Assembly (NCBI GenBank): GCA_046597635.1
Contig: JBKJKD010000144.1
Coordinates: forward strand, 2,905 to 66,904
Origin: Ferruginibacter sp.
Lineage (GTDB): Bacteria > Bacteroidota > Bacteroidia > Chitinophagales > Chitinophagaceae
Reading direction: 5' to 3'
DNA length: 64,000 bases
Shown here: piece by piece, positions 6,060 through 10,466 of the stretch
How the letters are laid out: each line of letters opens with the position of its first letter
How positions within the stretch are numbered: position 1 is the stretch's first letter
The notes under the pieces: model-generated
Database searches by the model: none
What the model saw: the letters and a program-made list of their open reading frames with translations, nothing else
Told to the model about the DNA's origin: nothing
Made by a program: the position numbers and the translations under genes

Positions 6060-7061
6060 TTAGGGGAACTTGCGCAGTACGAGGTAACGGAGCAAAACTT
6101 CGAGCAATAAAAAAAACAAAGCAGCTGCCACAAAGGGAAGAAATTTATCGTTGTAACGAATGGTGTTAATCACCTGCACTTTTGATTTTTCAAGGCCATC
6201 AATTTCTGTGTAAATGCCGTTGAGAGATTCATTGTCTTTTGCCCTGAAATATCTACCGCCGGTTTCTGTAGCAATCTCGGTGAGGAGTTTTTCATCTATA
6301 GAAACTTTGAAAGGTTGATTGACCACACCAGCAGGGGTATTCTCTGGTAAGTTGGCATAACCATCAGACCCAACACCAATAGTATATACCCTTACGGCAA
6401 AGGCTTTGGCAATTTCTTTGGCCGTTTTGGGATCTATGAGACCCCCGTTATTTTCTCCATCGGTAAGCAGTATCACTACTTTTGTTTTCGATTTGCTGTT
6501 GCGAATTCTATCTACACTGGTTGATAACCCGGAACCAATGGCAGTACCATCTTCCAACAAACCGTGCCGGATATTTTTAATGGCAGCTACCAATACAGTG
6601 CGGTCTGTAGTGAGTGGACATTGCGTAAAACTTTCACCAGAAAAGATAACAATACCAATTCTATCGGTTACCCGCCTGTTTACAAAATCGATGGCTACCT
6701 GTTTGGCAGCTTCGAGGCGGTTTGGTGTAAAATCTCTTGCGGTCATACTACCGCTCACATCAATACACAAAATAATATCTACGCCTTCACCTTCGGTTCG
6801 CTGGTCTTCGTTGCGCACCTGTGGCTTTGCCAAAGCGGTAATAATAAATGCAAGACAAAGCAAGCGGCAGGCAAATGGCAAATGCCTCAAAGCAGAGCGC
6901 CATGTTTGCAAACCAAAGGCACCCGTACCGGATACGATTACCGAAGCTGTGCGCTTTGTATTGGTCCTGATGTACCAAACAAGCAACAGCGGTAGCAGTA
7001 TCATCAACCCAAAAAAGATGGGCTGGGTAAATTCAATGTTATGTAAGTAGTCAAATATCAA
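6060..7061 (-). CDS. batA: VWA domain membrane protein BatA
   Basis: N-terminal TM pair, MIDAS DVSGSM, DGTAIG, LLTDGENN, C-terminal TM; follows moxR-DUF58. Confidence 0.88.
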   Translation of the reverse strand: MIFDYLHNIEFTQPIFFGLMILLPLLLVWYIRTNTKRTASVIVSGTGAFGLQTWRSALRHLPFACRLLCLAFIITALAKPQVRNEDQRTEGEGVDIILCIDVSGSMTARDFTPNRLEAAKQVAIDFVNRRVTDRIGIVIFSGESFTQCPLTTDRTVLVAAIKNIRHGLLEDGTAIGSGLSTSVDRIRNSKSKTKVVILLTDGENNGGLIDPKTAKEIAKAFAVRVYTIGVGSDGYANLPENTPAGVVNQPFKVSIDEKLLTEIATETGGRYFRAKDNESLNGIYTEIDGLEKSKVQVINTIRYNDKFLPFVAAALFFLLLEVLLRYLVLRKFP

Positions 7062-7075
7062 TGATCACACAAATT

Positions 7076-8002
7076 TTAAAAGCTTGATTTTTTTTCTAAA
7101 TGTTCTATCGCAGCCTTGATCTGTAATACAGATTGCTCTGTTTGCGACACAGGTGGATTATACTTTGCAAACTTTACAGCGTCGCCACAACGCAGCGCTT
7201 CTGCTGCACCAGACACCACCTGCGCATCCTTTGCCTGTTGCTGCAGTTGCAGCAATAAGTCGCCCGTGGTGATGCTCATCATGTTCCTGTTTGCTTTGCG
7301 ACTATAATATTTTTTAAACACATCGCTCAGGGAGAGGTAGTACGTCTTTTGTGATGCTGCATCAGCGGGAAGTTCCTTTTGCATTTTTTGCAAAGCCTTC
7401 ATGGCTTCATCATAAGCCGACTGTGCCGTGTTAAACAATGGCGGCGCTTTTTTCTTCCTGGTTTTAAAATAGCGGTAGACAAAGTAGGCCAATATCAACG
7501 CCAATATAATACCGGCTGCTATGTACATCCACTGCCGGTCTATCACAAATACTTCCATTACCGGCTTGATGTCCCGCAGTTGATCGGTGCTGTCGGCGGG
7601 TGAATACCCTACCCTAACAAGAAAGGAATCGCTTAAGAATTTTTGTGTAGCCTTGTTGGGAAAAGAAATACTAACAGGAAACGAAGGAATCTTCCAAACG
7701 CCAGAATCGAAGCTAGTAAACACGATGGATTGCCTCAAAGTGTACACACCAGTGGCGTCTGTGGTATCATATTTATTTTGATCTATAATTTCAAAATGAG
7801 GAACCGAGTCGGGGATGTCAATATCAATTCTGTAAGATGAGTTAGCCAGGTTGATTTTTATCTCAAACTTCACCTGCTCGCCAATTAAGATGTCGTTGGT
7901 ATTGATAGCTGTTCTTACAGCCTGGGCAGACAACTGCTGTCCCCCGGCAAACAAGAAAAACAACAATAAAAAACTATGATATAGAGTATACTTCGCAGTC
8001 AT
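7076..8002 (-). CDS. BatD/DUF4381-like membrane protein of the moxR-bat locus
   Basis: Signal peptide, IGEQV, FDSGVWKIP, LRDIKP, single TM, C-terminal D.VKFAKY.P. Confidence 0.75.
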   Translation of the reverse strand: MTAKYTLYHSFLLLFFLFAGGQQLSAQAVRTAINTNDILIGEQVKFEIKINLANSSYRIDIDIPDSVPHFEIIDQNKYDTTDATGVYTLRQSIVFTSFDSGVWKIPSFPVSISFPNKATQKFLSDSFLVRVGYSPADSTDQLRDIKPVMEVFVIDRQWMYIAAGIILALILAYFVYRYFKTRKKKAPPLFNTAQSAYDEAMKALQKMQKELPADAASQKTYYLSLSDVFKKYYSRKANRNMMSITTGDLLLQLQQQAKDAQVVSGAAEALRCGDAVKFAKYNPPVSQTEQSVLQIKAAIEHLEKKSSF

Positions 8003-8020: not shown

Positions 8021-8890
8021 TTAGGTTCTTCTTAAAAAAAACAATTGTAAAATTTTCACATAATCTTCGTCAGTGCGTATATGTAATAATTCTGCACCTG
8101 CTTTTCTAAAATATCTTTTTACCAGTTCTGTTTGGTTTAGAAAATGCTGCTGGTAGTTTTGCCGCACCATGGCACTTCCTGTATCTACCCATTGAGTGCG
8201 CCCGGTCTCCGCATCCTGCATTTGCAAAAGCCCTACTTCAGGCAATTGCATATCCATCTTATCGTAAACTTTTAACCCTATTACATCGTGACGTTTGCCA
8301 ATAACTTTTAAATCATTTTCGTAGCCGGTGTCCAGGAAATCGCTCAGTAAAAAAGCGATGCTCTTTTGCCTGGTGGTATTGTTGAAGTAGCGGATAGCCT
8401 CATCAATATTGGTACCCTGTGCCTGCGGTTCTACGGTGAGCAGTTCCCGCACAATGTACAATCCATGCTGGCGTCCTTTTTTTGGCGGAATATATTTTTC
8501 AATCTTATTGCTGAAAAATATGACTCCCACTTTATCGTTGTTGTTTATGGCGCTAAAGGCAAGAATGGCTGCCATTTCTATAATCAAATCTTTTTTTCGT
8601 TTGCCGGTTGTGCCAAACAAGTTACTGTTACTGGTATCTATCAACAGCATCATTACCAGCTCCCGCTCTTCTTCAAATACTTTAGAAAATGGATGAGCGT
8701 AGCGTGCACTCACATTCCAATCTATGAACCGCACATCATCGCCAGCGCTGTATTCCTTCACCTCTCTAAAGCTCATACCTTTGCCCTTAAAAGCAGAGTG
8801 ATACTCGCCTGTAAAAAGCTGGGTGGTAATCTTCTTGCTTTTTATTTCAAGTTCTTTTACCTTTTTTAGTATGTCGGCGGTGGTTAGCAT
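8021..8890 (-). CDS. DUF58 domain protein
   Basis: GEYHSAFKGKGMSFREVKEY..GDDVRFIDWNVSAR, FEEEREL, SDFLD. Confidence 0.95.
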   Translation of the reverse strand: MLTTADILKKVKELEIKSKKITTQLFTGEYHSAFKGKGMSFREVKEYSAGDDVRFIDWNVSARYAHPFSKVFEEERELVMMLLIDTSNSNLFGTTGKRKKDLIIEMAAILAFSAINNNDKVGVIFFSNKIEKYIPPKKGRQHGLYIVRELLTVEPQAQGTNIDEAIRYFNNTTRQKSIAFLLSDFLDTGYENDLKVIGKRHDVIGLKVYDKMDMQLPEVGLLQMQDAETGRTQWVDTGSAMVRQNYQQHFLNQTELVKRYFRKAGAELLHIRTDEDYVKILQLFFLRRT

Positions 8891-8898
8891 GAAGAAAG

Positions 8899-9446
8899 GT
8901 TGTCAGATGTTAGTTGTTAGATGACGGGAGTTAGGTATCAGGTGTTAGATGTTAGGTTTTAAGAATTAGGTGTTTTGTATTAAGGGTTACATGTTAGGTG
9001 ATAAGTTCGAAATATTGGTGCCTATTTTAAATTGCCTTTTTCGTAATAAGAAATGAGTCCATTTAAAATTTTAAGACACTCCTCAGTCATTTCATTTAGT
9101 TTGTCAAATTTTTCCTTTGACAAAATTTCCACCATTGCAGCTATATTCAGCAAAGTTTCTACTTCGTATAAAGAACCCCTTGCAATGTGTAAGAACTGAA
9201 TGGTATCCTTTTTATAATTTCTTCCCACGCCCTCCGCAATATTACTCGGCACGGAAGCAACTGCACGTTTTGTTTGAGATGTGAGAGCGAACAACTCATC
9301 TTTTGGAAAACTCTTCGTTAGCTCTTAAACTTCCCGAACCAACTGCATTGATTTTTTCCATGCCTCCAAATCTTTATATCCAGCCATAGAAAACTTTTTT
9401 AGAAAGATCTCAAATGTCGAGATGCTAACATCTAACATCTGACAAC
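8899..9446. mobile_element. Inverted-repeat-bounded cassette carrying only a four-helix-bundle gene (mobility inferred)
   Basis: 8899-8920 gttgtcagatgttagttgttag versus reverse complement of 9425-9446 gttgtcagatgttagatgttag (21/22). Heptad array runs to about 9000. Sits between moxR and DUF58. Confidence 0.5.
9022..9387 (-). pseudogene. Four helix bundle protein (23S rRNA IVS protein / TIGR02436-like) with in-frame TAA at codon 21
   Basis: MAGYKDLEAWKKSMQLVREV*ELTKSFPKDELFALTSQTKRAVASVPSNIAEG.GR...FLHIARGSLYEVET. The stop at 9325-9327 lies where Tyr is expected. Confidence 0.85.
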
Positions 9447-9464
9447 TAAAATCTACCTTCTCCC

Positions 9465-10466
9465 CTACGGCACATTTACCGTTCTCAAAATCTCGTCTAT
9501 AATTTCAAGCACATTTACATTTTCTGCTTCGGCTTCGTAAGTAAGACCTATACGATGACGCATCACATCTTTGCAAATGCTCCTTACATCTTCCGGAATA
9601 ACATAGCCTCTTTTATTGAGAAATGCATAGGCTTTAGCAGCCAATGCCAGGTTGATACTTGCTCTTGGAGATCCCCCAAAACCGATCAGGGGTTTTAGTT
9701 TAGACAGATTATAATTTTCCGGAAAGCGGGTAGCAAACACAATGTCCAGAATATAATTCTCTACCTTCTCATCAATGTACACTTGCCGCACCAATTCTTT
9801 TGCGGTTAATATTTCTGTAGTAGATGCAACAGGATAAATAATAGGAGCGACTAAGCCCAGCGTATTTTGCCGGATGATCATTTGCTCTTCAGATTTTGTG
9901 GGATAGGTTACCACTACTTTAAGCATAAAGCGATCTACCTGTGCTTCAGGCAGAGGATAAGTACCTTCCTGCTCAATAGGGTTTTGCGTAGCCAGTACGA
10001 GGAAGGGCTCTTGCAATTTATAACTGGTATCGCCAATAGTTACCTGCCGTTCCTGCATGGCTTCCAGCAAGGCACTTTGCACTTTGGCAGGTGCCCGGTT
10101 AATTTCATCCGCCAAAATAAAATTGGAAAAAATCGGGCCTTTACGAACAAAGAATTCGTTTTTGGATTGGTTGTAAATCATCGTACCTACCACATCTGCC
10201 GGAAGCAGATCTGGGGTAAACTGGATGCGGCTAAAATCCGCATGAATAGACTGAGCCAGCGATTTTATAGCCAGTGTTTTTGCCAGCCCGGGAACGCCCT
10301 CTAACAAAATATGACCGTTGCTTAACAGTCCAATCATGAGGCGTTCTATCATTGTTTGCTGGCCGACGATCACTTTGCTGAGCTCATCGTTTATTCTGGT
10401 AACAAACCCTGCTGCATGACTGATCTTTTCATTCAGGAGGCGAATGTCTTCTGCTGTTTGTAGCAT
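9465..10466 (-). CDS. moxR: MoxR family AAA+ ATPase
   Basis: LEGVPGLAKT, RIQFTPDLLPAD, LADEINRAPAKVQSALLEAMQE, ATQNPIEQEGTYPLPEAQ.DRF. Confidence 0.96.
   Translation of the reverse strand: MLQTAEDIRLLNEKISHAAGFVTRINDELSKVIVGQQTMIERLMIGLLSNGHILLEGVPGLAKTLAIKSLAQSIHADFSRIQFTPDLLPADVVGTMIYNQSKNEFFVRKGPIFSNFILADEINRAPAKVQSALLEAMQERQVTIGDTSYKLQEPFLVLATQNPIEQEGTYPLPEAQVDRFMLKVVVTYPTKSEEQMIIRQNTLGLVAPIIYPVASTTEILTAKELVRQVYIDEKVENYILDIVFATRFPENYNLSKLKPLIGFGGSPRASINLALAAKAYAFLNKRGYVIPEDVRSICKDVMRHRIGLTYEAEAENVNVLEIIDEILRTVNVP

Follow-up and report, generated by a model that had tools for sequence, protein, structure and literature searches.

A heptad-armed four-helix-bundle cassette in the moxR operon of a Ferruginibacter genome and its likeness to ORF-bearing 23S rRNA intervening sequences

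A 574-bp insert between moxR and DUF58

The window, that is, the whole 64,000-nucleotide stretch of Ferruginibacter sp. DNA that was analysed, carries on its minus strand a moxR/Bat operon in which a 574-bp insert occupies the entire space between the moxR stop codon and the DUF58 start codon. The features of this locus, listed from the 5' end in gene sense, are the following.

9465..10466, minus strand: moxR (AAA_3 ATPase), the upstream host gene (PF07726, E=2.6e-66)
9425..9458, minus strand: 5' arm (gene sense), G/T-rich heptads of the GTTAGAT type (TRF period 7, 4.4 copies, at 9425-9455)
9388..9424, minus strand: non-repetitive leader of 37 nt, seen in the sequence, running from the 5' arm up to the ATG that opens the four-helix-bundle gene
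9022..9387, minus strand: four-helix-bundle gene of 121 codons, a pseudogene (PF05635, E=1.6e-38; TIGR02436, E=9e-37)
8899..9005, minus strand: 3' arm (gene sense) of 107 nt, C/A-rich heptads of the ATCTAAC type, about 15 units (TRF periods 7/14/21)
8021..8890, minus strand: DUF58 gene (vWA-like) of the moxR/Bat operon, host gene on the downstream side (PF01882, E=3.8e-74)
7076-8002, minus strand: DUF4381-like gene, 3' of DUF58 (PF14316)
6060-7061, minus strand: BatA/VWA gene, after the DUF4381-like gene (PF00092, PF07584)

The outermost arms, 8899-8920 (GTTGTCAGATGTTAGTTGTTAG) and 9425-9446, are 22 nt each and complementary at 21 of the 22 positions (95%), just as had been described in an earlier note made from the sequence without database searches; their alignment reaches a score of 39, whereas 100 shuffles averaged 18 and never exceeded 28. 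The further heptads that had been noticed on the left side belong to the period-7/14/21 array of the 3' arm, within which a direct-repeat family, D1, recurs at spacings of 14, 14, 21 and 21. The moxR stop codon lies 18 nt from the 22-nt inverted arm and the 3' array terminates 8 nt short of the DUF58 ATG. In the MFE as well as the centroid RNA fold, a stem formed by the arms encloses the entire cassette (z=-3.77). [quoted passage not shown] An Rfam search of positions 8700-9700 returned no match. The same was true of a PADLOC search, and we therefore dropped the reading of the insert as a defence system.

The identification of a TIGR02436-like four-helix-bundle gene inside the operon is upheld by the profile scores of its product (131.6 bits against PF05635, cut-off 33.8; 125.6 bits against TIGR02436, cut-off 24). 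The nearest solved structure by sequence is XCC0516 of Xanthomonas (2GSC, E=4e-20), described as a homopentamer built from four-helix bundles (PMC4990558). No catalytic domain is recognisable in the protein. The window copy is a pseudogene, since its codon 21 is an in-frame TAA (9325-9327) where the orthologues at loci L007 and L014 read TAT; a residual 90-aa ORF with a TTG start (9022-9294) is left within the broken gene.

Presence, absence and decay of the cassette in relatives

The window MoxR is 86-89% identical to its nearest named records, which are Ferruginibacter sp. MAGs. We compared the moxR-DUF58 junction in 28 relatives having both genes on one locus, 21 of which belong to the same genus. 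The two genes are normally adjacent, as the earlier note states. The junction is near-empty (0-27 nt) in 7 of the 28 relatives (L010, L012, L016, L021, L008, L025 and L030). Within the genus, 2 of the 21 relatives possess the cassette gene and 5 have a near-empty junction, and the junction is otherwise filled by gene-less heptad hairpins or unrelated spacers. Presence or absence across relatives had been set beforehand as the test of an insertion, and the gene proved not to be fixed at this site.

Intact orthologous cassettes lie at the junction in L007 (genome G016) and L014 (G014). An orthologous cassette is also found there in L023, from a different bacterial family, and L028 (G027:C1), likewise from a different family, has at its junction a four-helix-bundle gene of another subfamily enclosed by AGTGAAA/TTTCACT arms. 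Because the L028 cassette belongs to a different subfamily, the moxR-DUF58 junction has been struck independently at least two times. Gene-less heptad hairpins are present at the junction in L009, L011 and L029, while the closest GTDB relatives have unrelated spacers at this position, and a wider set of 80 Bacteroidota moxR loci contains many further gene-less heptad hairpins (e.g. L261, L293, L315 and L329). Judged from these sequences, the state of the junction appears to change fast among relatives. Gene-less hairpins occupy the junction also in gut Bacteroidales, namely in Segatella copri (L304), in a Prevotella sp. (L329) and in a member of the Tannerellaceae (L315), which means that cultured, genetically tractable experimental hosts exist.

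Nearer to the window than any GTDB relative is the metagenome contig Ga0136636_10027900 (L341; 85-88% nucleotide identity). Its orthologous cassette (L341:1061-1500) has suffered a 5' truncation that removed about 30 first codons, and its 5' arm has been replaced by GTTGAGG units, which are mismatched to the ATCTAAC 3' arm. Taken together, the nonsense codon of the window copy and the 5' deletion and arm replacement in L341 indicate that this lineage carries a decaying cassette. Among orthologous four-helix-bundle genes, dN/dS is 0.03-0.16 at dS values from 0.65 to saturation, which shows that the protein is functional and under purifying selection, and the cassette arms retain their unit type and complementarity over spans that would scramble neutral sequence. 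A cassette can accordingly persist for long with its protein under purifying selection and then decay.

The cassette design is general and the arms travel with the gene

The window genome, hereafter G000, encodes 11 PF05635 proteins with mutual identities of 15-40%. All 11 genes are flanked by inverted arrays of about 7 nt, the unit of which differs from copy to copy; arm units of the paralogues include GGTTTAG, GGTGAAT, GGCAATR, ATGATTT and GACGAAT. The prediction that paralogues should have inverted heptad flanks is thus borne out by ten of the ten other copies in G000. Wherever a neighbouring gene could be called, the 11 copies are co-directional with both of their neighbours. In a survey of the genus (30 genomes), the arm alignment exceeded the best of 30 shuffles in 96 of 113 cassettes, and identity at lag 7 was raised in both flanks of these 113 (0.33 versus about 0.27); 23 of 28 cassettes from 28 Bacteroidota genomes pass the same comparison of arms with shuffles. 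The median distance from the upstream stop codon to the 5' arm, which often includes that stop codon, is 2.5 nt, and the median distance from the end of the 3' arm to the next ATG is 9 nt. Cassettes thus land in the narrow gap that separates one gene's stop codon from the following gene's start codon, and always in the direction of the host genes.

The PF05635 family is present in 64 of 81 sampled Bacteroidota genomes, and Bacteroides thetaiotaomicron, which served as a control, likewise possesses such genes. Within the genus the number of copies per genome ranges from 0 to 23, and internal stop codons interrupt 17 of 150 PF05635 matches (about 11%), among the matches listed; the turnover of the family within the genus is thus high. 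In an alignment of 10 paralogues from G000, the only invariant columns are Q40, S47, N51 and E77 (C109 numbering), around the NIAEG motif, and there is no conserved stretch of 7-10 columns. The four residues are polar or acidic, not basic, which would be unexpected if the sole role of the protein were nucleic-acid binding.

For pairs of cassettes with unrelated outer flanks, the similarity of the arms climbs with the identity of the proteins, from 0.22 (below 40% identity) through 0.33 (50-60%) and 0.45 (60-70%) to 0.54 (at least 70%); same-locus orthologues have arm similarities of 0.51-0.61. One cassette family, with proteins 80-85% identical, is found at three unrelated loci in three genomes with the common termini GTTAATCCG...CGGATTAAC, and no target-site duplication was seen at these three loci. 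Both results speak for the insertion cassette that had been proposed in the earlier note. Furthermore, unit variants tend to be mirror-ordered in the two arms (score 38 versus 32.4 with the unit order shuffled; Wilcoxon p=1.5e-5, n=37). What is inherited and turns up at new loci is the whole unit of arm, gene and arm.

Heptad arrays throughout the genome

At a TRF score of at least 40, G000 contains 237 period-7, 65 period-8 and 127 period-14 arrays, whereas a shuffled genome yields 0, 0 and 9, respectively. When merged, these amount to about 448 heptad arrays covering 23.9 kb, most of them gene-less, so that gene-less arrays outnumber PF05635 genes by about 40 to 1 and the flanks of the window cassette are part of a genome-wide system. 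Forty-eight inverted pairs occur among the 448 arrays; 27 of these enclose a spacer shorter than 300 nt and no gene, while the spacers of 420-480 nt, and most of those of 580-860 nt, represent four-helix-bundle cargo. Fifty gene-less spacers were found to be free of PF05635 remnants, which makes simple recent deletion an unlikely source of most arrays; we therefore rejected the idea that gene-less hairpins are recent deletion derivatives, even though L341 shows that 5' deletion is ongoing.

Several arrays deserve separate mention. At C146:33576-35459 of G000, heptad arrays occupy the spaces that separate genes for ribosomal proteins (S13-, S11- and S4-like ORFs), indicating that arrays are tolerated even in highly expressed essential operons. 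Two near-perfect arrays of GATGTCA, which is the unit family of the arms of the window cassette, are located at C1:14494-14586 (13 copies) and C234:7286-7411 (18 copies), and their perfection suggests recent expansion, although the window gene is broken. A perfect (AACCCTA)11 array lies at a contig end (C325:1-79) and a (GGTTTAG)8.7 array at C321:509-569. GGTTTAG corresponds, by cyclic permutation, to TTTAGGG, the telomere repeat of the plant type; these telomere-like arrays are nevertheless probably not contamination, because the GGTTTAG heptad family flanks the C109 cassette. Finally, 65 of the 448 arrays of G000 are situated at contig ends. Arrays probably break short-read assembly, and counts of arrays and cassettes in fragmented MAGs (e.g. 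G024) are therefore likely too low.

Gene subtypes and their repeat units

The array survey covered 31 genomes and three protein subtypes, together with 183-400 kb from each of six genomes, for which the densities of period-7 arrays were as follows, with the whole of G000 for comparison.

G018: 0 PF05635 copies, 0 period-7 arrays per 100 kb (400 kb)
G003: 0 PF05635 copies, 0 period-7 arrays per 100 kb (400 kb)
G021: 1 PF05635 copy, 0 period-7 arrays per 100 kb (217 kb)
G010: 3 PF05635 copies, 1.7 period-7 arrays per 100 kb (239 kb)
G017: 23 PF05635 copies, 3.75 period-7 arrays per 100 kb (400 kb)
G046: 20 PF05635 copies, 3.8 period-7 arrays per 100 kb (183 kb)
G000, the window genome: 11 PF05635 copies, 6.1 period-7 arrays per 100 kb (whole genome)

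G018 and G003, two complete-looking genomes devoid of PF05635, have neither period-7 nor period-8 arrays in the 400 kb taken from each. At the level of subtypes, orthologues (at least 57% identity) of the C277-type protein, the arms of which consist of GGTGAAT units, are encoded by only four of the 31 genomes (G000, G005, G011 and G024), and exactly these four contain 80-226 matches to GGTGAAW, compared with at most 8 in each of the other 27. The four do not form one clade in a tree of MoxR and DUF58, the well-supported branches of which require two changes or more. G021, which is the sister of G005 in this tree, has neither the C277-type gene nor GGTGAAW arrays. For the C109 type (GTTTAG arms), at least 20 unit matches were counted in 6 of 7 genomes with the gene versus 4 of 24 without it. 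The C171 type (TGATDTN units) matches poorly, with arrays in 1 of 2 genomes with the gene versus 5 of 29 without. Over the three subtypes together, arrays accompany the gene in 11 of 13 genome-subtype combinations and occur in 9 of the 80 that lack it, counts in which related genomes are non-independent samples. The unit family of the window cassette itself can be described only by a degenerate pattern that has many matches in the reversed-pattern control and is too unspecific for co-occurrence.

One genome, G024, is an exception, in that a single detected gene is accompanied by hundreds of matches of three unit types. A linear dose-response between gene copies and arrays was rejected on this account: the relation holds for no copies versus many, and G024, with one copy and many arrays, breaks its linearity. 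Given this exception and the non-independence of the genomes, we regard it as a partly supported hypothesis that the subtypes act specifically in trans. It is possible, although we would put it forward only tentatively, that PF05635 proteins form the trans-acting component of a repeat system with two parts, each subtype recognising its own 7-nt unit and driving the spread, expansion or retention of its arrays, i.e. of the cassette arms and of tens to hundreds of gene-less arrays. If true, a single cause would lie behind both the surplus of heptanucleotide repeats seen in many bacteria, which has long lacked an explanation, and the origin of the intervening sequences of rRNA that bear an ORF.

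Proposed explanation and its alternatives

We interpret the insert as a decaying heptad-armed four-helix-bundle cassette, which corresponds, in an operon of protein-coding genes, to the ORF-bearing intervening sequences (IVS) found in 23S rRNA, and assign to this explanation as a whole, including its proposed steps, a probability of roughly 0.55. Both the movement of the cassette and the role of its protein are what we infer, as follows. The cassette, which has no recognisable promoter of its own, would be read from the operon transcript, in which the two arms would base-pair and so enclose the ORF within a long stem. By analogy with rRNA IVS, this stem is probably a substrate of RNase III, and its cutting would mean that the insertion does the host operon almost no harm; we include this RNA-processing step because of the precedent of the Coxiella IVS and the strict co-orientation of cassettes with host operons. 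The Avd-like protein, expected to be pentameric, may recognise, in repeats of its own type, the heptad strand rich in G and T and might in this way maintain or spread the cassette arms as well as the gene-less arrays, which are far more numerous. That the protein might bind its heptad flanks had been suggested in the earlier note, and the co-occurrence of subtypes and units lends this suggestion indirect and partly inconsistent support. The enzyme responsible for cutting and joining DNA is not encoded in the cassette.

The composition of the arms bears on whether they act as RNA or as DNA. In 87 of 96 cassettes, G outnumbers C in the arm on the 5' side of the cargo (835 G versus 229 C), and, as the arms are inverted, the G-rich strand runs 5' to 3' toward the cargo from both sides. 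The same G-inward polarity is observed in 24 of 27 gene-less inverted pairs and in 21 of 23 cassettes across the phylum. Mismatches between the arms that would be G.U in the sense transcript number 95, versus 86 that would be G.U in the antisense; this wobble asymmetry amounts to no signal, and in the absence of a G.U excess the sequences give no positive sign of selection on a sense RNA stem. Three ideas were tried here and rejected, the first two of them as explanations of the polarity. A telomerase-like or retro-element origin of the G-inward strands is contradicted by the lack of RVT_1 in the array-rich G000 and its presence in one array-free genome, a rejection that covers genome-encoded reverse transcriptases of the RVT_1 family. 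The arms could have served as frame-independent translation stops, which would account for inward strands poor in C, and 38 of 88 close all three frames versus 17.7 for shuffled arms; by our own calculation, however, about 47% would be expected for any tandem heptad of that composition, so that three-frame closure points to nothing beyond periodicity. The third candidate, a RAYT/Y1 transposase as partner, is present in 5 of 5 genomes tested, whether these have arrays or not. The survey of cognate enzymes covered Y1_Tnp and RVT_1, neither of which tracks the arrays.

A polarity that is symmetric on both strands, coupled with the lack of G.U bias, is what would be anticipated from a DNA transposon-like element. 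Its arms would be terminal inverted repeats in which a binding site is reiterated, and its protein would have an architectural role, bringing in a recombinase or nuclease of the host that acts on hairpins of DNA; the gene-less arrays would be non-autonomous, MITE-like copies and RNA pairing would be irrelevant. The relocation of the arms with the gene and the co-occurrence of the gene with arrays fit such an element as well. We nonetheless consider it unlikely: target duplications and an associated recombinase are both missing, Y1 transposases are equally represented in genomes with and without arrays, G000 has no reverse transcriptase, and pairing of gene-less arrays is often imperfect or missing altogether, with only 48 pairs among 448.

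The distribution of arrays among intergenic regions (1.01 arrays per kb in convergent, 0.77 in co-directional and 0.21 in divergent gaps) could alternatively reflect a domesticated regulator. The protein would then be a host factor binding RNA or DNA, the arrays its regulon of operon-internal and 3' sites, and the arms autoregulatory. Arrays are indeed 4-5 times denser in co-directional or convergent than in divergent gaps, the gene is under strong purifying selection with orthologues retained at fixed loci over dS>1, and a post-transcriptional role has been proposed for the TAACTGA heptads of Beggiatoaceae (PMC4679880). A host regulator would hardly be expected, however, to range from 0 to 23 copies in one genus with stop codons in about 11% of the copies, among the matches listed, to be missing together with its arrays from two complete-looking genomes, to occupy a junction whose state turns over fast, or to turn up in cassettes at unrelated loci, and we find this explanation improbable.

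It could also be argued that the arrays came first: hairpins would grow by replication slippage and four-helix-bundle genes would insert into their loops, in which case the arms would be target sequence rather than part of an element. Polymerase slippage was proposed by Mrazek et al. 2007 (as summarised in PMC4679880), and the long perfect arrays of G000 suggest that slippage is ongoing. The roughly 40-fold numerical excess of gene-less arrays over genes, the many genomes with gene-less hairpins at the moxR-DUF58 junction and the absence of gene remnants from gene-less spacers all accord with this order of events. It does not readily explain why arm sequence tracks protein relatedness at unrelated loci, why three loci share identical termini around genes 80-85% identical, why arrays are lacking from genomes without the gene family, or why GGTGAAW arrays are confined to genomes with the C277-type gene, and is in our view quite unlikely. 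That a chance inverted repeat happens to stand beside an ordinary small gene, for which nothing speaks other than the A+T-rich, low-complexity flanks, is refuted by an arm score above that of 100 out of 100 shuffles and by the recurrence of the design in 11/11, 96/113 and 23/28 cassettes.

Significance and comparison with known systems

This locus and its relatives join two old loose ends, the function of the protein encoded in 23S rRNA intervening sequences and the excess of 7-base tandem repeats: outside rRNA, the gene family and the heptad repeats move as one unit, and for one protein subtype or more the repeat unit is present genome-wide where the protein is. What had been a vague association thereby becomes directly testable by experiment. 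In annotation, such cassettes should be treated as insertions splitting operons, and a heptad array as a probable sign that the system is present. The results obtained here are the presence/absence series at the junction, the co-inheritance of arms and gene, the G-inward polarity, the absent wobble signature, the purifying selection and the within-genus link of the gene family, and in part of its subtypes, with arrays across the genome. A literature search, outside which most subscription journals lay, retrieved no paper in which inverted heptad arrays are connected with PF05635 genes at large; the only published hint that we found is the occurrence of heptameric repeats in the Coxiella IVS.

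The heptad arrays resemble MITEs and REP/BIME elements in being short, multi-copy, intergenic inverted repeats enriched at the 3' ends of genes. They differ from these in lacking target duplications, in having arms of tandem heptads instead of a unique terminal repeat and in that the presence of a Y1/RAYT-type transposase does not track them. They also resemble the heptanucleotide long simple-sequence repeats (LSSR) and STRR-type arrays, which likewise consist of lineage-specific intergenic tandem 7-nt units without an accepted explanation. Heptad arrays of this kind have been described for GGGAATC in Xanthomonas, where they are often paired convergently (70-75 pairs), for GGGGAYT in Nostoc (PMC4692102) and for TAACTGA in Beggiatoaceae (PMC4679880). 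Unlike those arrays as published, the ones in G000 bracket PF05635 genes and co-occur with them; the terms PF05635 and S23p occur 0 times in PMC4679880 and PMC4692102.

On the protein side, there is distant homology to Avd of diversity-generating retroelements (DGRs; PF22296 bAvd, E=6.6e-6; NF033474, E=4.7e-6; PHROG 3206, E=9e-9). Avd is a small helical protein that acts in complex with the reverse transcriptase of the retroelement (PMC6182149). The window protein, by contrast, attains only 26.9 bits against DivGenRetAVD (cut-off 80) and 27 bits against bAvd (cut-off 40), G000 has no RVT_1 match anywhere, and a pair of template and variable repeats is lacking. With scores below the cut-offs and a genome without reverse transcriptase, the window protein is not a DGR Avd.

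The closest parallel is offered by the S23p-type IVS, which are known from Coxiella burnetii (helix 45), Leptospira, Brucella and Xanthomonas, and for which earlier authors have proposed that the ORF-bearing IVS is a mobile element (PMC4990558). In Coxiella, a variable number of heptameric repeats precedes the S23p ORF, and the terminal stem is cut by RNase III at the start of these repeats (PMC4990558). Like such IVS, the window cassette encodes a PF05635 protein, has a size of about 430-570 nt, carries its ORF in the loop of a stem of terminal inverted repeats, would have its sense strand in the host transcript and has an ORF prone to decay; like the Coxiella IVS in particular, it has heptameric repeats on its 5' side. 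Unlike them, it is located between two protein-coding genes of an operon rather than in 23S rRNA, both of its arms are 7-nt arrays, and its genome contains 11 copies with different units alongside hundreds of gene-less arrays.
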